From the IMG/VR virus record IMGVR_UViG_3300045988_114939, positions 1 to 43,074 of that record: a DNA stretch of 43,074 nucleotides. One strand, given 5' to 3'. This document shows, in pieces, positions 12,623-29,720 of this stretch (its first letter is position 1; each line of letters starts with the position of its first letter). Source of the stretch: a virus. A program made the translations under genes and the position numbers. The notes beneath the pieces were generated by a model. That model was not told where the DNA came from. It did not search any database and saw only the letters and a program-made list of their open reading frames with translations.

Positions 12623-12653
12623 TTTGGTAATTCAGTTTTTCTTTGTACCTTTG
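12623..12653 (+). promoter_or_regulatory. Bacteroidota sigma-A type promoter (P1)
   Basis: TTTG at 12623-26, a 19-nt spacer, then TACCTTTG at 12646-53 (TAnnTTTG). Confidence 0.7.
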
Positions 12654-12681
12654 CAATGTGATTAATAAACAACACAACTGA

Positions 12682-19486: not shown

Positions 19487-19517
19487 TTTGGCGGTTTGAA
19501 AATTATTAGTAACTTTG
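19487..19517 (+). promoter_or_regulatory. Bacteroidota-type promoter (P3)
   Basis: TTTG at 19487-90, a 19-nt spacer, then TAACTTTG at 19510-17. The downstream leader is near-identical to that of P1. Confidence 0.7.
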
Positions 19518-19545
19518 CAATGTGATTAATAAACAACACGACCGG

Positions 19546-25062: not shown

Positions 25063-25091
25063 GGCGGAGCATTGCGCTCCGCCTTTATCTT
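25063..25091 (+). terminator. Rho-independent terminator
   Basis: GGCGGAGC-ATTGC-GCTCCGCC followed by TTTATCTT. Confidence 0.7.
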
Positions 25092-25526
25092 ATGAATATG
25101 GCCATATTAATAGAAGATGTAGCGTGTTATCTGTATGCGCGCGATAGAGGGTTTGAGCCGCTTGTTGATAAACGATTTGAAATACCTATAAGTGTGCGTG
25201 TGGATGTGCAGCGGCATTTATTCGGCCGTGGCCACTCAATGGCCGAGAACGAAAGGTTTTATCGGTATTGTTGGCGAATATATCCGCACATCTGCCAAGA
25301 ATGCTTGCGGCCGCTTGGCAATTATTCGGCCGTATATATATCGCACATACGCACGCGCGGAGCATTCCCCGAAATGGCGCACGATGTTAGGAATGTGAAT
25401 GTACTCTGTTTCAAGCATCACAACCAGTGGGAAACTGGTAATAGAAAGGCAATGCGGATATATCCGCGCAATGCCATGACAATAGAGCAGCTTACAAAAG
25501 AGTATAACGAGTTTTGGCGGCCTTAA
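25092..25526 (+). CDS. HNH endonuclease
   Basis: CQEC, then SHIRTRGAFPEMAHDVRNVNVLCFKHHNQWE: the His, Asn and His/Cys arrangement of the HNH fold. Confidence 0.6.
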   Translation: MNMAILIEDVACYLYARDRGFEPLVDKRFEIPISVRVDVQRHLFGRGHSMAENERFYRYCWRIYPHICQECLRPLGNYSAVYISHIRTRGAFPEMAHDVRNVNVLCFKHHNQWETGNRKAMRIYPRNAMTIEQLTKEYNEFWRP

Positions 25527-25616
25527 AATATGCTTAATTGTTATAGAATGTAAACAAGGCGCGTTTTGATGGGTATTTGTGTTAATGAAATTCAAAATAA
25601 CGATATTTATTTGTTT

Positions 25617-25652
25617 TTTGCTTGCAGGTTTCAAAAATACTTCTTACCTTTG
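25617..25652 (+). promoter_or_regulatory. Bacteroidota-type promoter (P4) driving the non-coding region
   Basis: TACCTTTG at 25645-52. CTTG at 25621-24 with a 20-nt spacer, plus TTTG at 25617-20. The downstream GCATTGTGATTAAGAAACACAC resembles the P1 and P3 leaders. Confidence 0.65.
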
Positions 25653-25658
25653 CATTGT

Positions 25659-26340
25659 GATTAAGAAACACACATACAAAACTTGTTTCAAGGTCACGCA
25701 ACAAACTTGCCAAAGTATAAATGGTTTCGGAATGTCGATGTAGGGACGGACGAGTAAAAACGCAAAGAAGCCTAAGCCCTTGGTGGTATGGCGAGCGGTC
25801 TACATAACGCCTACCAACGCAAAACATCGTATGCGCGTTGATGTTAGCCCGAAAGGGCGCGGTTGAAAGCCTGAAAAGATAACCGCTTAAAATGGCTGAT
25901 GCCCTTGGCGTTGGGGCGTGGAACTCACCACGCGCTAAAAAAGAGGAACTTCGCACATGCGGACAATAGCCTGTAAAGTTGGGGTGTTCAAAAAATCCGT
26001 AGAGTACGCATTTAATGCGTAAGTACCCACTTAATCTAGGCATGGCACTTGTAACCTTTGGGTATGCAAGAGTGGTTGGGCAATAATGTGAGTGAACCCC
26101 CGTAGAACTCTACTCAATAAGCGTTGAATGCGCGCGATTTAGCACTTATCATAGTGCAGCATCAAGGAGGACGCTCCTTGCGCAGGTCAGCAATGCGCTG
26201 AAAGCTGAAATCCGCAACGGTGGCCAACCATGAAAGCTAGTGGTTTGGTGCTAAGCAAGCGGCAAAGGGCAAGCCCACGGCTTGGGCTAAGCGAATGCCC
26301 CGCGCGGTGTTTTTAGTGTTTTTGACACCGCATTTTATTT
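25659..26340 (+). ncRNA. Candidate large structured non-coding RNA (about 680 nt), family not recognised
   Basis: No + strand ORF of 60 aa or more between 25527 and 26347, in an otherwise densely coding genome. Has its own promoter and a terminator. Contains many local hairpins, including a GNRA loop (GCCC-GAAA-GGGC at 25847-58) and CAAGGAG-GACG-CTCCTTG at 26163-80. The ends are estimated, not mapped. Confidence 0.6.
26304..26340 (+). terminator. Terminator at the end of the candidate ncRNA
   Basis: GCGGTGT (26304-10) pairs with ACACCGC (26325-31), followed by ATTTTATTT. Confidence 0.55.
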
Positions 26341-26347
26341 AAAAAAG

Positions 26348-26578
26348 ATGGAGGAACTAACTATGACGAACTTTTTGAACTTTAAGGCGGCAAAAAATTC
26401 CGACCTTTGGTGGCTTTGCATAGCCGATGCCGCAGGCGGCATTCTCGATGAGGAGGATAGTTTTTTAGCAGTTGTTGATGTAAGGGTGGGGCGTAATCTT
26501 ACGGCATGTGGCCATAAGTTCCGTATGCCTAGTTTTGATAATTTAAGTCGTGGATGGGTACGTAGAAATGTACCATAA
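26348..26578 (+). CDS. Hypothetical small protein
   Basis: 76-aa ORF with its ATG in the AAAAAAGATG context. Confidence 0.5.
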   Translation: MEELTMTNFLNFKAAKNSDLWWLCIADAAGGILDEEDSFLAVVDVRVGRNLTACGHKFRMPSFDNLSRGWVRRNVP

Positions 26579-26598
26579 AATATTTTACAAAAAGGCCA

Positions 26599-26632
26599 AT
26601 GGCGCGAGCCTTACCAAATCCGCGCCATAATT
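26599..26632 (+). terminator. Hairpin (terminator candidate)
   Basis: ATGGCGCG (26599-606) pairs with CGCGCCAT (26621-28), followed by AATTTT. Confidence 0.5.
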
Positions 26633-26648
26633 TTAAATTCAAAAAAAG

Positions 26649-26951
26649 ATGAAGAAGTATATTAGCAACGCTTTTTCCTTGCAGATGCTAGACACAAGCA
26701 AGGAGCAGAAAGTAATTATTACCCCTGTTAGTGAGGTGGAGTTTAATGGTGCAAAAACCACGGCTGTGTCTGCCGTTGGTCACCAAGATACCGCGGCCGT
26801 TTTGGGCGTTCCTTTCAATAGGATGAGCCTTAAATTAGAGCAAGGTGACGAGTTATTTGTTGCCCAACTCGTTGGCGGCCGTCTGCCAGAGGGATGCACC
26901 GAACTGCCGCAAGGATTTAAGTTCACCTACTTAAAGGTGACACTAGTCTAA
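26649..26951 (+). CDS. acrIII-1: DUF1874 family protein, AcrIII-1-like viral ring nuclease (degrades cyclic tetra-adenylate)
   Basis: 100 aa. N-terminal SNAFSLQML, VGHQDTA (conserved catalytic His region) and VAQLVGGRLPEGCTEL. These match the motif pattern recalled for SIRV1 gp29 and STIV B116. Confidence 0.6.
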   Translation: MKKYISNAFSLQMLDTSKEQKVIITPVSEVEFNGAKTTAVSAVGHQDTAAVLGVPFNRMSLKLEQGDELFVAQLVGGRLPEGCTELPQGFKFTYLKVTLV

Positions 26952-26957
26952 CATATA

Positions 26958-26983
26958 CCACTAGCTTAGCGGCTAGTGGTTTT
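26958..26983 (+). terminator. Rho-independent terminator
   Basis: CCACTAGC-TTAGCG-GCTAGTGG followed by TTTT. Confidence 0.7.
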
Positions 26984-27000
26984 GTAGTATCTAAAAAAAA

Positions 27001-27201
27001 ATGAATATGGAAAATAAAAGAGGTGGTGCGCGTAAGCGCGCAGGTAGAAAAAAGTTGGGCAAAACCTCAATTATGGTTTATCTTTCGCCAGAAAATGCCA
27101 ACTTTGTGCGAGAAATGGCAGAAAAATATTACAAAACGCTGTCTAGTACGGTGGAAGAGTTCATTGTTCAAGCGAGAGAAAGGGCGGAAAATGAGGGTTA
27201 A
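27001..27201 (+). CDS. Ribbon-helix-helix (CopG/Arc-like) DNA-binding protein
   Basis: 66 aa. Basic N-terminus (GGARKRAGRKKLGK), then a beta strand (TSIMVYLSPE) and two helices. Confidence 0.45.
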   Translation: MNMENKRGGARKRAGRKKLGKTSIMVYLSPENANFVREMAEKYYKTLSSTVEEFIVQARERAENEG

Positions 27202-27520
27202 CAAACCTAACTATGCAGAAATATCAAGGCGCAGCGTTCGCGCGGATTTTGCGCCTAGGAAATTTCAGCAGCGAGAAAAAAGAAACGAAAGGCCGCAAAG
27301 CGATGATGTACGCAGAATTGTGTTTGTGAACCCCAATAGCGGCTATTTCAAGTACAAAAACTTACTTCTAGGCAAACAAGTGCGCTTACTTCGCGAGGCC
27401 ATTCTTGGCGGTTGGTTCTGCGAGTTTTTGAACGACCACGACCGCAAGGCCGTCAATGATGCAGCAGGGTGGAGCAATGAAAAAAAAGAATACTTGTTTG
27501 ATGGGGTGAAATTCAAATAA
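27191..27520 (+). CDS. Basic hypothetical protein
   Basis: Internal ATG of the 27023..27520 ORF. The upstream part of that frame overlaps the RHH gene and is discounted. Confidence 0.45.
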   Translation: MRVNKPNYAEISRRSVRADFAPRKFQQREKRNERPQSDDVRRIVFVNPNSGYFKYKNLLLGKQVRLLREAILGGWFCEFLNDHDRKAVNDAAGWSNEKKEYLFDGVKFK

Positions 27521-27525
27521 AAAAA

Positions 27526-27615
27526 ATGAGTGACAAGTTAATAGAAAATATCTTTGGGCTTATAGCCTTTATAGTTGTTTTCGTTGTGTATTACCTAACA
27601 ATCAAAGAAAAATGA
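27526..27615 (+). CDS. 29-aa single-pass membrane peptide (MSDKLIENIFGLIAFIVVFVVYYLTIKEK)
   Basis: Translated by hand; it falls below the ORF-track size cutoff. Fills an otherwise empty gap and has an ATGA overlap with the next mini-ORF. Confidence 0.4.
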   Translation: MSDKLIENIFGLIAFIVVFVVYYLTIKEK

Positions 27616-27725
27616 AAGCTGAAAAAGGTTATAAATTGGTGTTTTGGGGGTTCGTTTTATTGACCCTTTTTTGTTACATCTACACGCTTGTAGACGTTGT
27701 TCGTTCAATCTTTAAACTTTTCTGA
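27612..27725 (+). CDS. 37-aa single-pass membrane peptide (MKAEKGYKLVFWGFVLLTLFCYIYTLVDVVRSIFKLF)
   Basis: Translated by hand. Ends 2 nt before the ssb start. Confidence 0.4.
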   Translation: MKAEKGYKLVFWGFVLLTLFCYIYTLVDVVRSIFKLF

Positions 27726-27727
27726 TT

Positions 27728-28189
27728 ATGGCAATCAACAAAGTTATATTACTAGGTAATGTAGGCAATGCGCCGAAAATGTACACTTTTGACGATGGTC
27801 GAAAAGCCGCGCAAATATCGTTGGCCACGTCAACGCCCGAATACACAAAAAAAGACGGCACAAAGGTGAATGGCGTGACAGAATGGCACAACGTGGTATT
27901 ATACACACCATTAGCCGAAATTGTAGAGAAGTACGTCCATAAGGGCGATAAACTCTATATCGAGGGGCGCAACCATTATCGAGAGTACGAGGCGAATGGC
28001 GTTAAGCAATACTTTACGGAGATTATTGCCAATAGTTTGGAGTTGTTAACGCCGAAACCAAAACAACCATCGCCAGAGCCATTCACAGCGGCCGCACCAC
28101 AACAACAGCCGGCGCAAATGGCACAAGCGCAACAAACGGCACAACCCACGCAAGCGGCGCAAGGAAATTCAGATGATTTACCATTTTAA
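27728..28189 (+). CDS. ssb: Single-stranded DNA-binding protein
   Basis: MAINKVILLGNVGNAP OB-fold opening, a Pro/Gln/Ala-rich linker, and the C-terminal acidic tip DDLPF. Confidence 0.9.
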   Translation: MAINKVILLGNVGNAPKMYTFDDGRKAAQISLATSTPEYTKKDGTKVNGVTEWHNVVLYTPLAEIVEKYVHKGDKLYIEGRNHYREYEANGVKQYFTEIIANSLELLTPKPKQPSPEPFTAAAPQQQPAQMAQAQQTAQPTQAAQGNSDDLPF

Positions 28190-28198
28190 ACAAAGGCT

Positions 28199-28705
28199 AT
28201 GCAGATAAAAATAACGGAATATGACGCACTAAAACATGATGTGTTTAGAGCGTTAAGCGTTAAGCAGCCGTTTGCCAATGATTTGGTTAATATCGCCTAT
28301 GAAGACGATGATGGCAACTCGTATGGTTTCAAAAGCATAGAAGTACGCAGCAGATGCACATCTTACAGGGGCAAATTACTGATTTGTAGTAGCCAGTCGC
28401 CAAAAATTCCAAACATGCAAAGTGGCTGTGCGCTTGGATTTGTTGAGGTGTACGGCGTTAAGCGTGTGAAAGACTTTACAGACGAAGATTGGGACAATAC
28501 GCGAATACCGCGCGCGCGCCGTTCCGAGATAAAAAGTGGCTGGGGGTGGCTTATGCGAAATCCCAAACGAGTTGTAGAACTGCCAATTAAAGGGCAATTG
28601 GGTATTTTCAATATTGCATTTGAAAAGGGCGATATAGTCGAATATCCTCGTATAGTCAAGGTTGGCCGTGATGATTTTAACTTACTTAATAAAGAAAAAA
28701 GATGA
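28199..28705 (+). CDS. ASCH/PUA-like domain protein
   Basis: ALSVKQPFANDLV, IEVRS and YRGKLLICSS pattern. Confidence 0.45.
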   Translation: MQIKITEYDALKHDVFRALSVKQPFANDLVNIAYEDDDGNSYGFKSIEVRSRCTSYRGKLLICSSQSPKIPNMQSGCALGFVEVYGVKRVKDFTDEDWDNTRIPRARRSEIKSGWGWLMRNPKRVVELPIKGQLGIFNIAFEKGDIVEYPRIVKVGRDDFNLLNKEKR

Positions 28706-28923
28706 AAGAAGAATTAGACAAAATCGACAAAGGAATTGCGGAGTTAATGGCGGCAGTAGAGTGCCAGCGCAATGCACTTAACAAGGCCGCGAGCAAAAGA
28801 AGACAAAAGATGCCGCGCAACGAAAAAGAGTTAAGCGAAAAGTTATTTGCTTGTAAAACTTATCTTCGGTTTGCGCGCACTAGTATAAATAAAGCCCTAA
28901 CAGCATCACGACAAAACAAATGA
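28702..28923 (+). CDS. Hypothetical protein
   Basis: 73-aa helical ORF with an ATGA overlap. Confidence 0.45.
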   Translation: MKEELDKIDKGIAELMAAVECQRNALNKAASKRRQKMPRNEKELSEKLFACKTYLRFARTSINKALTASRQNK

Positions 28924-28926
28924 GTT

Positions 28927-29181
28927 ATGGAATTTGAAAAAATATATTACGGGCAAATAAGGGAGTGGTTGGCAAAGAACGAAAATAACAGCATTATTGT
29001 TATAGTCAACGAATGCAAAGAAGATGGGAAAAGTGATATTTTTTCATCAATTGAGGGAAATTCACACCCTCTAATCACATCACTTGCCCAACACATAGAC
29101 AAAAGCCAATCATTCAGGAAAATTCTAAGTGATGCGCAGTATCTGTGCGCCGAGGTGAAAAAGAAGAGTAAAGAAAACTAA
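28927..29181 (+). CDS. Hypothetical protein
   Basis: 84-aa ORF. Confidence 0.45.
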   Translation: MEFEKIYYGQIREWLAKNENNSIIVIVNECKEDGKSDIFSSIEGNSHPLITSLAQHIDKSQSFRKILSDAQYLCAEVKKKSKEN

Positions 29182-29193
29182 ACAATTACGACA

Positions 29194-29550
29194 ATGATAG
29201 AACAAGAATTAGAACAAGAATACTTGCAAAAGTCGCGAGAAATTGAAAATCAAATAAAGGCTTTGTATTCAAAGCAAAAAGACTTGGATGCAGCATATAT
29301 AGAGCGTTGCGCCCCTTTTGACGTTGGCACAAAACTCGTTGCCCGTAACAAGTTCAGCAATAAAACGTTTGTCTGTTGGGTCGTTGGCTATTGTGTCCAA
29401 TTCAACAAGATTGTAATGATTTACAACGATGCTAAAAATAATGGTGAACGCTCAATGCGCCAATATAAGGCCAATACTTCAAGTTTAGAAATGCGAATTT
29501 GCGTTGATGATAAAGATAATAAAGATAGGGCGAACGGCCTTTTGTTTTAA
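29194..29550 (+). CDS. Hypothetical protein
   Basis: 118-aa ORF. A hairpin, GCCTTTTG (29537-44) pairing with CAAAAGGC (29554-61), spans its stop codon. Confidence 0.5.
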   Translation: MIEQELEQEYLQKSREIENQIKALYSKQKDLDAAYIERCAPFDVGTKLVARNKFSNKTFVCWVVGYCVQFNKIVMIYNDAKNNGERSMRQYKANTSSLEMRICVDDKDNKDRANGLLF

Positions 29551-29689
29551 CATCAAAAGGCTAGACAAAAACAAGATTGTAACGCCTTACATTTCCATTT
29601 CGGTTATTAACGGAATAGATATTTGTGTGGATATAGGGTTAGGGGCATTATTTTGGCAAGTTTGCTTGCGTTTTATATACCTCAAAAAC

Positions 29690-29720
29690 TTTGCTAAGTG
29701 AAAGAAAATCACTATATTTG
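29690..29720 (+). promoter_or_regulatory. Bacteroidota-type promoter (P6)
   Basis: TTTG at 29690-93, a 19-nt spacer, then TATATTTG at 29713-20. Confidence 0.6.

Follow-up and report, generated by a model that had tools for sequence, protein, structure and literature searches.

What does a phage make from 821 nt of DNA that hold no recognisable gene? This question is raised by positions 25527-26347 of the window, by which we mean the whole stretch of 43,074 nucleotides analysed here; it is the longest ORF-free stretch of the window, the runner-up measuring 307 nt. Large, intricately folded RNAs of bacteria and phages are rare, and those that are understood are ribozymes or the cores of ribonucleoproteins. 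To our knowledge no clear function has been assigned to GOLLD, ROOL or OLE. An earlier note on the window had read the stretch as a promoter-to-terminator unit for a large structured noncoding RNA.

Here we follow this stretch through related phages. Comparison of the copies gives good support to a functional, folded, noncoding RNA of about 680 nt encoded on the + strand at 25657-26340, with a 5′ end predicted from the promoter and a 3′ end predicted from the terminator. By the comparisons made here it is a new large phage RNA, unrelated to GOLLD, ROOL or OLE and from a different phylum.

The stretch lacks the marks of a protein coding region

On the + strand, 25527-26347 holds no ORF that reaches 60 aa, as the earlier note had said. 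That note had put the + strand ORFs past the promoter at only 11-15 codons; their actual maximum is 25-28 codons, and a 54-codon GTG ORF (+) runs across the promoter. Codon-phase bias is absent from the RNA region, both in the + phases (p = 0.44) and in the phase of the 153-aa ORF on the antisense strand at 25582..26043 (-; p = 0.7); third-position bias (p = 1e-5 to 1e-34) is seen in all flanking genes (8/8). The conserved frame with third-position bias that the earlier note had raised as an objection is therefore found in neither orientation. Single-nucleotide indels at 25777, at 25733/34 and after 26249, together with a 100-nt indel, break each small ORF in some copies, and the indels of the short variants cut the antisense ORF. 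A search of 5.8 billion proteins gave just three near-identical clusters for this ORF, and Pfam and PHROG gave no match, which, with the missing phase bias, supports its earlier dismissal as spurious.

The GC content of the ORF-free stretch is 0.49. The interior had been described as GC-richer than its surroundings; this holds against most flanks (0.36-0.44) but not against the HNH gene directly upstream, and because that gene is already at 0.46-0.48 the rise is modest. The heptamers TGAAAGC (25864, 26199, 26231) and GCTAAGC (26250, 26286) recur as previously listed. No tandem or multi-copy repeats or iterons were found in the RNA region. A possible origin of the two RNA halves by internal duplication was not significant, 72 of 300 shuffles scoring as high.

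A putative promoter and a candidate terminator bound the RNA

An exact match to the Bacteroidota -7 consensus TAnnTTTG, TACCTTTG, lies at 25645-52 (+), where the earlier note had placed it, and is predicted to serve as the promoter. The box is unchanged in all copies and the 118-nt spacer upstream varies; the + strand of the window has only five such full promoter-like sites in intergenic DNA, this one included. The nearest upstream TTTG (-33-like) lies 24 nt from the box, compared with 19 nt at two sister promoters. Overlapping the box is a promoter-proximal element, TTTGCATTGTGATTAAGAAACA (25649-25670, +), which may be an operator or a common 5′ leader. Its consensus, TTTGCAwTGTGATTAAkAAACA, has three occurrences in the window when up to 2 mismatches are allowed (at the promoters near 12650 and 19514 and at 25649) and none in 100 shuffles, so the element shared with other promoters that had been described earlier is real.

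At the other end, a hairpin of 8 bp with a 12-nt loop followed by a U-tract (26304-26340, +) resembles an intrinsic terminator. Its arms GCGGTGTT and GACACCGC at 26304-31 (-11.1 kcal/mol) precede ATTTTATTT, and one-sided changes among the copies leave the pairing intact. A simple terminator scan missed this hairpin because its loop exceeds 8 nt. The intergenic DNA carries no + strand promoter motif from 25652 to 29713, about 3.4 kb past the terminator, and downstream genes including SSB would therefore be reached by read-through. The hairpin and T-tract given as the end of the unit are thus present, but the terminator must be leaky or regulated, since no promoter follows before 29.7 kb. From its end to the first ORF (start 26348 or 26363) there are 8-23 nt. 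A structured 5′ leader, a terminator directly before an ORF and no promoter until 29713 is the layout of a riboswitch or attenuator.

The RNA is the first product of a small cassette

The RNA belongs to a 1.66-kb cassette of a PDS1-like Bacteroidales siphophage, which lies as an insertion between the HNH (PDS1 gp31-like) gene and the gp32-like gene. In order, the cassette has the promoter, the RNA as first product, a 76-aa ORF, an AcrIII-1-like ring nuclease and an RHH regulator. The 76-aa ORF (26348..26578, +; likely start ATG 26363) shows third-position bias (p = 2.6e-5). It always follows the RNA and is restricted to the lineage at 74% identity or more; it has no Pfam or PHROG match, and its AlphaFold2 model is unusable (pLDDT 47). 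The next ORF, STIV_B116-like (DUF1874, AcrIII-1 family; 26649..26951, +), matches Pfam PF08960 (E = 1.8e-6, 28.5 bits against a cut-off of 26), and its product would by family be a ring nuclease. An Arc-like ribbon-helix-helix ORF (27001..27201, +), the candidate regulator of the cassette, matches PHROG 3431 (Arc-like repressor, E = 8.7e-5). Pfam and PHROG thus bear out the context given in the earlier note, with HNH (PHROG) upstream and the STIV_B116/DUF1874 and Arc-like RHH genes downstream. Going by gene neighbourhood alone, the cassette is probably an anti-defence one; ring-nuclease anti-defence operons under RHH control are documented, as for Aca14 with csx20 (PMC13551039).

The orthologues of the HNH and gp32 genes abut in 64 of 75 sister-clade loci and the others hold different inserts at that junction, which on this gene order is an insertion hotspot. 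The HNH gene itself is a conserved core gene, the orthologue of PDS1 gp31 (54% identity), and all 75 sister loci have it without the RNA. Its ORF is intact in every locus, suspected pseudogenes having proved to be missed gene calls.

Copies are confined to one phage lineage

Distinct copies number 17; they are 88-99% identical and come without exception from one subclade of PDS1-like phages, whose host is probably Hoylesella/Prevotella (oral/gut Bacteroidales). The RNA is absent from the 75 sister-clade loci, a search with nhmmer and a covariance model of the 5′ domain matching the window's own copy alone, and blastn in distant mode gave no match among 50,697 cultured phage records. Exact-pattern scans of IMG/VR returned the same 7 contigs only, among the matches listed. 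A pattern scan of metagenomes gave 39 stretches, of which 4, including 2 new ones, were real and the remainder chance; a scan of 185,579 species genomes gave one chance 21-mer in an actinobacterial MAG and no copy. The 5′ end of one copy (L051) was discarded as a chimeric join to a bacterial helicase-like gene. No description of the RNA was found in the literature, the supplementary tables of a viral structured-RNA screen (PMC10690425) lying outside that comparison.

Two natural variants are informative. L146 is without 25988-26331 and L162 without 25727-26119, and both are otherwise normal phage contigs. Because each misses one half, the RNA is modular and not essential. The loss of either half also argues against the need for a single integrated fold.

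Conservation and compensatory changes indicate a folded RNA

The RNA segment is the least variable part of its 6-kb neighbourhood, with the neighbourhood minimum of diversity (0.015-0.03) at 26179-26327. Copies of the RNA are 94-100% identical compared with 73-96% for the adjacent genes; in L060 the 3′ domain is 100% identical and the following two genes 78% and 73%. The true spacer at 25527-25644 is about twice as variable as the RNA.

Substitutions within the RNA largely preserve pairing. In an alignment of 12 copies, 99.6% of cells in 100 modelled pairs are canonical and 12 pairs change on both sides, compared with 4.2 +/- 1.3 in shuffles (0/500 reach 12) and 0-1 in slid controls. In an alignment of 18 rows, 17 of 118 modelled pairs covary, changing on both sides with pairing kept, and 98% of cells are canonical; all these copies are at least 88% identical and of one lineage, the events are few and phylogenetically linked, and some helices were picked from the alignment later used to test them. 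Roughly 70% of the pairs in the model show no variation, and the 90 nt with the strongest conservation are invariant. A lack of covariation among homologues had been named earlier as a reason to give up the RNA; compensatory changes are instead found in many helices. Since the G-U cells, which make up 11.7% of paired cells, make sense for one strand only, they place the RNA on the + strand. The folding energy of the single sequence against shuffles is unremarkable (z = -1.15; MFE z-scores are not significant on either strand), and because it is not better than that of shuffles the case rests on the comparative data.

Several pairings proposed by folding programs were discarded. Unconstrained RNAalifold paired 25769-78 with 26279-88, a helix that clashes with the covariation-supported receptor hairpin described below and breaks in L004, and 25833-45 with 26120-33, which clashes with H3 and its double compensatory change. 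Pairings of the leader with the 3′ domain from constrained folding were dropped because 25729 varies without compensation.

The fold comprises a leader hairpin and separable domains

All helices are given on the + strand. The 5′ leader hairpin (25656-25698; 25656-62/25692-98 and 25665-70/25684-89) shows one-sided changes that keep pairing (U-G to U-A, A-U to G-U), and it is kept in both deletion variants. Arm H1 follows (25738-25805, helix 25738-44/25799-805), with pair 25741-25802 appearing as U-A, U-G or C-G. It carries a hairpin at 25770-25792 with the 11-nt GAAA-tetraloop receptor CCUAAG...UAUGG (motif at 25771-91), the sole occurrence of this motif on either strand of the 43-kb window, where 0.28 would be expected per window and about 0.002 for this stretch. 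In L004 the receptor hairpin has two compensatory pairs, 25771-91 from C-G to A-U and 25777-86 from C-G to G-C. A candidate partner lies in the adjacent multi-branch domain (25806-25912), where GCCC-GAAA-GGGY at 25847-58 presents a GAAA tetraloop at 25851-54; by sequence the two form a tetraloop/receptor module, and docking is predicted. This domain is closed by H2 (25806-11/25907-12) and holds H3 (25815-20/25835-40), the tetraloop hairpin and two further hairpins, 25859-86 with loop GAAAGCCUGAAAAGAU and 25894-903. In L039 and L159, H3 carries a double compensatory change. Pairing in H2 survives substitution at 25809-909 (G-C, U-A or A-U) and at 25806-912 (A-U or G-C), and two variants have lost one whole base pair of this helix in a coordinated deletion.

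The central hairpins (25917-25987) are D1 (25917-21/28-32) and D2 (25950-54/59-63), which are invariant among copies, and P-h (25967-72/25982-87), in which 25968-86 changes from A-U to U-A and 25969-85 from G-U to G-C; P-h is longer in the short variants. An optional domain of about 100 nt (25988-26087) forms a long hairpin that includes ACGCAU/AUGCGU at 26006-20; in L060 and L062 its loop reads GAAA instead of UUUAA. The domain is missing in L004, L148-150 and L064, where P-x directly follows P-h. P-x (26088-26117; 26088-94/26111-17) is found in long and short variants and has moderate support: 26088 G to U gives a U-A pair in the short variants, and one cell is an unpaired A-A in two variants.

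The 3′ domain (26121-26303) contains H4 (26121-24/32-35), H5 (26142-46/53-57), H6 (26163-69/74-80), Hq (26187-91/97-201), H7 (26223-31/26240-49) and a block at 26250-26303 without variation among copies. H4 has a C-G pair in 9 copies and U-A in 8, H5 a change from U-A to A-U, and H7 a pair seen as C-G, U-G and U-A. Four pairs of H6 covary, giving the versions CAAGGAG, CCAAGGG and CCCAGAG, so the CAAGGAG/CTCCTTG hairpin picked out from one sequence in the earlier note is sustained by three differently compensated forms. The six hairpins listed there are all present as written; the outer pair of GCGTGG/CCACGC is not conserved among the copies.

Proposed mechanism

We give about an even chance to the following reading: a lineage-restricted noncoding RNA of some 680 nt, first product of the cassette and free after the terminator, that is probably a trans-acting accessory (counter-defence) RNA. 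Transcription would begin about 5-8 nt past the -7 box at 25645-52. The RNA would fold into the 5′ leader hairpin, a 5′/central domain (25738-25987), the optional hairpin domain of about 100 nt and the 3′ domain (26121-26303, its final 90 nt invariant), and the GAAA tetraloop (25851-54) could dock into the 11-nt receptor (25770-92). The hairpin and U-tract at 26304-40 would stop most transcripts, releasing a free compact RNA, and transcripts that pass the hairpin would serve as mRNA for the proteins of the cassette (76-aa protein, AcrIII-1-like ring nuclease and RHH regulator) and for later genes. As the weakest step, the folded RNA may act in trans by binding a factor of the host or the phage, as scaffold or decoy, in keeping with a counter-defence role of the cassette. 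Its role would be accessory, not essential, with two separable modules. A search for antisense targets of the RNA within the phage gave nothing above chance.

A bolder version, which we consider unlikely, makes the RNA itself a new kind of counter-defence effector or sensor. It would be a decoy or sponge for an immune protein or nucleotide signal, or else a large riboregulator: its invariant 3′ domain would detect a defence signal (such as cyclic oligoadenylate) and release the terminator so that the ring nuclease is turned on. If true, an anti-defence role would for the first time be assigned to a large structured RNA.

Alternative explanations

The same data can be read as a cis-acting leader or attenuator, the 680 nt being the 5′ UTR of the cassette and the invariant 3′ domain sensing a signal that sets how much transcription continues into the three protein genes of the cassette. 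Either a small molecule or a protein, such as the RHH or the 76-aa product, could supply this signal, and such control can coexist with a role in trans. We regard this as possible, if somewhat doubtful. The position of the terminator just before the first ORF, with no promoter motif for 3.4 kb, and the constant linkage of the RNA to the 76-aa ORF point this way, and supply of downstream genes including SSB by read-through fits a leader equally well. Against this, no conserved pairing of an antiterminator with the 5′ arm of the terminator was seen when the alignments were inspected by eye only. Conservation is indeed strongest right beside the terminator, but the 5′/central domain, 400 nt away, is conserved as much as the 3′ domain. 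L146 has acquired a new hairpin and U-tract, again directly before the ORF, yet without the whole 3′ domain it still keeps the cassette. Regulators of anti-defence operons can bind RNA motifs in their own 5′ UTRs (PMC13551039); however, 680 nt with a tetraloop-receptor pair far exceeds known leaders and riboswitches, and no known aptamer class in Rfam matches.

The remaining explanations fare worse. Recent ancestry or hitch-hiking could keep a non-functional spacer or decayed gene uniform, since the copies are all close relatives; either half is deleted in nature and the folding energy is unremarkable. We rate this as very unlikely: the RNA varies less than every flanking protein gene, even at their constrained codon positions, a neutral spacer should vary most, as the true spacer at 25527-25644 does relative to the RNA, and helix substitutions are compensated. 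Less likely still is an unusual or relic group I or II self-splicing intron, or a ribozyme of another known class, with the HNH protein as homing endonuclease. The HNH ORF does lie directly upstream, the same junction holds a NUMOD4/HNH-like endonuclease insert in other lineages, and tetraloop-receptor pairs are typical of group I/II introns and RNase P; yet intron, RNase P and small-ribozyme models all lack a match at E<=10, the HNH gene is a core gene that occurs without the RNA, the flanking ORFs are complete orthologues and so leave no exons to join, and the RNA has its own promoter. A manual look for group I P/Q/R/S-like elements gave only a short Q-like string (AAUCCGCAAC), judged chance. 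Lower again we place a function at the DNA level, for example as a replication origin or packaging site. The locus sits in a replication/recombination module near SSB and origins are often ORF-free, but the region is GC-richer than its surroundings, not AT-rich, and free of iterons, its covarying pairs pass through G-U intermediates that suit one RNA strand only, the tetraloop-receptor is an RNA motif, and the sister clade replicates without the element. Least credible of all is a protein-coding region. Short + strand ORFs and the antisense ORF do exist, and some records carry gene-caller annotations of the latter and of fused 116-117-aa products; even so, no frame has phase bias, indels disrupt each ORF in some copies, and homologues beyond the lineage and family matches are lacking.

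Significance

The setting of the RNA is informative, with its own promoter, a cassette with genes for an AcrIII-1-family ring nuclease and an RHH protein, and an insertion hotspot. Natural deletions of the optional domain, the 5′ half and the 3′ half, together with a probable cultivable host genus (Hoylesella/Prevotella), make its function testable by phage genetics and structure work. Because it is so narrowly distributed, comparison has less power and its general importance is limited. Should its function be counter-defence or signal sensing, the RNA would represent a new class of RNA-based interplay between phage and host.

Comparison with known systems

Rfam 15 gave nothing in the window at gathering score, and 25500-26450 at E<=10 gave two chance matches to unrelated sRNAs; the earlier note's failure to place the RNA in any family thus stands after a cmscan-type check. 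Features of other phage RNA systems were also sought. For RNA anti-CRISPRs, a repeat-like unit was sought with the CRISPR-DR models of Rfam, none of which matched in 25500-26450. For type III antitoxin RNAs and retrons, there are no tandem repeats, and no RT or toxin family occurs among the neighbours in Pfam or PHROG.

GOLLD and ROOL frequently adjoin tRNA genes in phage and prophage DNA. The likeness to them drawn in the earlier note holds for size and setting, namely several hundred nt in phage DNA with many helices and no coding capacity, and goes no further: none of the Rfam covariance models of GOLLD, ROOL, OLE, HEARO and raiA matched. Unlike them, the RNA is restricted to one phage lineage, has no tRNA or tmRNA gene in the 43-kb window (ARAGORN), and occurs in a Bacteroidota host rather than in Lactobacillales or rumen and lake samples. 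GOLLD and ROOL are large 'ornate' phage and prophage RNAs that form RNA-only multimers by cryo-EM (PMC12286853).

With riboswitch and attenuator leaders the RNA shares a promoter, a structured RNA and a terminator directly before the first ORF, with conservation peaking beside the terminator; it is 3-5 times longer, has no aptamer match and no alternative pairing found, and its 5′ domain is far from the terminator. From group I/II introns and RNase P it differs in having its own promoter and terminator, no model match, no exons and no recognised catalytic core. It resembles their domains (such as P4-P6) in carrying a GAAA tetraloop and a CCUAAG/UAUGG receptor in neighbouring arms of one domain, an arrangement that implies side-by-side packing of helices. 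Known acr operons have short leaders, and here a 680-nt structured RNA stands between the promoter and the first ORF, with RHH binding and ring-nuclease activity being predicted. Common to this cassette and acr-aca operons such as Aca14 with csx20 (PMC13551039) are an early-type promoter with an operator-like element, DUF1874-family and RHH genes, and a short cassette at a hotspot.

A noncoding stretch with promoter-like and terminator-like ends

The window phage, about 43 kb long, belongs to the PDS1-like siphophages of Bacteroidales and has all its long ORFs on the + strand. Its longest ORF-free stretch is 25527-26347, 821 nt versus 307 nt for the runner-up. As claimed in the earlier note, which proposed a large structured phage RNA from this one sequence, no + strand ORF of at least 60 codons lies within it; the small + strand ORFs, at up to 25-28 codons, exceed the size given there, and the rise in GC content is present but modest. 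The -7 box TACCTTTG was matched at 25645-52 (+ strand), and the terminal hairpin with its U-tract at 26304-40, all six local hairpins, the TGAAAGC and GCTAAGC repeats and an antisense 153-aa ORF were likewise recovered. The downstream element held to be common to the promoters at 12650 and 19514 has three matches in the window and none in shuffles: TTTGCAwTGTGATTAAkAAACA stands identically beside the -7 box at three + strand promoters (12623-12671, 19487-19535 and 25617-25670). At the first two, the hairpin ACGGCnGTTTCCGT comes next. The shared element could be a common operator, perhaps bound by the RHH protein encoded downstream, or a 5′ leader marking one temporal transcript class. The ends of the transcript would lie at the promoter and the terminator, with termination at the hairpin probably partial.

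Sequence variation is neither that of a gene nor that of a spacer

Seven 6-kb loci were aligned, and each of the eight flanking genes displays a strong third-codon-position excess of variation (p 2.6e-5 to 1e-34). The RNA stretch on the + strand has no such excess (p = 0.44), nor does the antisense ORF in its own phase (p = 0.7), and the density of variable sites in the stretch is about half that of genes. Each small ORF, and the antisense ORF too, is interrupted in some copies by indels of 1 nt or by one of 100 nt. The antisense ORF, rightly suspected to be spurious, matches nothing in Pfam or PHROG, and a set of 5.8 billion proteins contains just three clusters of it, all near-identical. Given the lack of phase bias, the ORF-breaking indels and the absence of a family match, we therefore reject the coding reading on either strand; a coding region is unlikely. 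Annotated 116-117-aa proteins in two variants (P0007, L062 3001-3351; P0023, L162 1501-1854) fuse the 3′ end of the RNA, via the terminator, to the following 76-aa ORF; made by gene callers owing to 1-nt indels, they are an annotation artefact masking the RNA.

The stretch is also conserved above its neighbours. In the related locus L060, its 3′ part is 100% identical, versus 78% and 73% for the next two genes. The lowest sliding-window diversity of the 6-kb region falls at 26179-26327 (0.015-0.03), diversity is also low at 25789-25937 (0.04-0.06), and the true spacer (25527-25644) shows roughly double the variability of the RNA body. A neutral spacer or pseudogene would show the opposite pattern, and this explanation, contradicted by the low diversity of the body, is unlikely.

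Compensated helices and a tetraloop-receptor pair

Taken by itself, the folding energy does not reach significance (z = -1.15 and -1.81). Substitutions among copies are located in helices and compensated. In H1 (25738-44/25799-805) the pair 25741-802 occurs as U-A, U-G and C-G; the receptor hairpin (25770-72/90-92 and 25776-78/85-87) carries two compensatory pairs in locus L004; H2 (25806-11/25907-12) has one pair as G-C, U-A or A-U, another as A-U or G-C, and a coordinated loss of one whole base pair in two copies; H3 (25815-20/35-40) has a double compensatory change; and H4 (26121-24/32-35) has C-G in 9 copies and U-A in 8. P-h (25967-72/82-87), H5 (26142-46/53-57) and H7 (26223-31/40-49) are supported helices. 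The best-supported, with three different compensated versions, is H6 (26163-69/74-80), foretold from one sequence in the earlier note.

A 100-pair model over 12 copies is 99.6% canonical, and 12 pairs have changed on both sides, versus 4.2 +/- 1.3 in column shuffles (0/500 reach 12) and 0-1 in slid-partner controls, several helices having been picked from the same alignment used to test them. Extended to 118 pairs and 18 rows, 98.1% of cells are canonical; 17 pairs covary, 81 never change and 20 show one-sided or other changes, the sequences being closely related and most pairs invariant. G-U accounts for 11.7% of paired cells and also appears as an intermediate state of pairs that covary, so what folds is + strand RNA, not DNA, and a DNA element is unlikely.

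A GAAA tetraloop hairpin, GCCC-GAAA-GGGY (25847-58, +), and a canonical 11-nt GAAA receptor, CCUAAG...UAUGG (25771-91, +), the latter found only this once in the window, both strands considered, occupy adjacent arms. Together these motifs are typical of compactly folded large RNAs, and the tetraloop presumably docks into the receptor. At 25728-25734 lies a tiny motif, C-N-GAA-N'-G, in which 25729 and 25733 covary (G/U, U/A, A/U); in the U/A variants the sequence becomes CUGAAAG and adds a fourth UGAAAG loop motif to those at 25864, 26199 and 26231.

A narrowly distributed, modular RNA

Across the whole window no Rfam 15 family reached its gathering score, and none was matched at E<=10 over 25500-26450, in keeping with the earlier note, which could assign the RNA to no family; the cultured phages searched have no match either. 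Copies were gathered from IMG/VR, by way of DNA patterns and of the 76-aa ORF that lies downstream, from one metagenome scan and from contigs encoding neighbouring proteins. The 17 distinct copies, plus partial ones, are 88-99% identical, and all come from ~43 kb phage contigs of human gut and oral samples. In L157, from an oral metagenome, the whole RNA is identical to the window copy, and its 76-aa ORF (P0010) is RefSeq WP_281724463.1, filed under Hoylesella shahii (oral Prevotellaceae). Because of this entry and the oral-metagenome labels of several contigs, the evidence points to a Prevotellaceae host, unlike the Parabacteroides, Bacteroides and Alistipes infected by the nearest cultured phages. 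Neither nhmmer nor a covariance model of the 5′ domain detects the RNA in 75 loci of a sister clade whose 216-aa protein is ~60% identical. One 20-nt block of the 3′ domain, scanned against 185,579 species (one genome each), hit nothing but a 21-mer attributable to chance. We excluded L051 1-248, a bacterial helicase-like coding sequence joined to the RNA mid-hairpin (D1, 25917-21/28-32) in a low-coverage metagenome contig, most likely an assembly chimera.

Three sub-lineages do without a ~100-nt domain (25988-26087), and in them P-h runs straight on to hairpin P-x (26088-94/26111-17). L146 lacks 25988-26331 and proceeds from P-h to a U-tract and a 76/77-aa ORF, so that a hairpin and U-tract are re-created ahead of the ORF (L146 1440-1520). 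L162, a 43.5-kb contig whose variant is carried by two contigs, lacks 25727-26119 and retains the leader and 3′ domain alone. Both deletion junctions (the second at L162 1370-1400) have 2-3 nt of microhomology. Thus the RNA consists of a 5′ and a 3′ module that can be separated, neither of them essential for the phage; no duplication is detectable between its halves.

The RNA heads an inserted cassette

The upstream HNH gene and the 109-aa ORF at 27191 are orthologues of PDS1 gp31 (54% identity) and gp32 (46%), respectively; these two genes abut in PDS1, PD491P1, AS73P1 and 64/75 sister loci. Nine other sister loci carry protein-coding inserts of 394-611 nt at this junction, and such varied inserts therefore mark it as an insertion hotspot. 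Examples are a 171-aa NUMOD4/HNH-like homing-endonuclease-type ORF (L094 6105-6620) and a 204-aa Cys-rich ORF (L098 6127-6741). The RNA-bearing lineage has a 1.66-kb cassette there: spacer and promoter, RNA, the lineage-specific 76-aa ORF, an ORF matching STIV_B116/DUF1874 (AcrIII-1 family) and an Arc-like RHH ORF, the neighbourhood being as first described.

Intergenic DNA of 25652-29713 contains no + strand TAnnTTTG, and the downstream genes including SSB therefore depend on read-through of the 26304-40 hairpin, which would be either leaky or regulated. Other hairpin and T-run sites within the apparent single transcription unit (19510 to ~29600) follow the 216-aa gene (25063-25092), the 76-aa ORF (26589-26640) and the B116-like ORF (26957-26990); transcription in this phage may depend on terminators that leak or on antitermination. 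Two tiny hydrophobic ORFs without family match lie between the gp32-like gene and SSB (27526-27725), one of 37 aa called in nearly all related contigs and one of 29 aa called only in L157. Sister-clade loci (L136 474-1182, L144 1275-1891, L116 2104-2672 and ~15 others) have 480-710 nt without a + strand ORF ~3-4.5 kb upstream of the 216-aa gene.

Discussion

The element is conserved, noncoding and base-paired on the + strand; its start resembles a promoter and its end a terminator. It is lineage-specific, modular and dispensable, and it heads an inserted accessory cassette. That it is a functional structured RNA is very probable, although any function is conjectural. The favoured reading, a free, compact, trans-acting RNA serving the cassette's probable counter-defence role, is, taken as a whole, an even call. 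The main rival, a cis-acting leader or attenuator of the cassette, is possible but doubtful as the explanation and is compatible with a trans role.

The layout is analogous to that of Aca14-type operons, recently described as anti-defence units, which combine a ring nuclease with an RHH regulator whose site is common to several promoters (PMC13551039); here, however, the promoter is separated from the first ORF by a 680-nt RNA. The element has a tertiary motif in common with group I/II introns and RNase P RNA but none of their defining features, and an intron relic is unlikely. The interest of the RNA is real, but tempered by its very narrow distribution. With GOLLD and ROOL it has its size, its residence in phage DNA and the lack of an assigned function in common, yet their models do not recognise it and it has no tRNA genes nearby as they do. 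Among the large ornate phage RNAs, a loose category, it is best regarded as a new and unrelated family.
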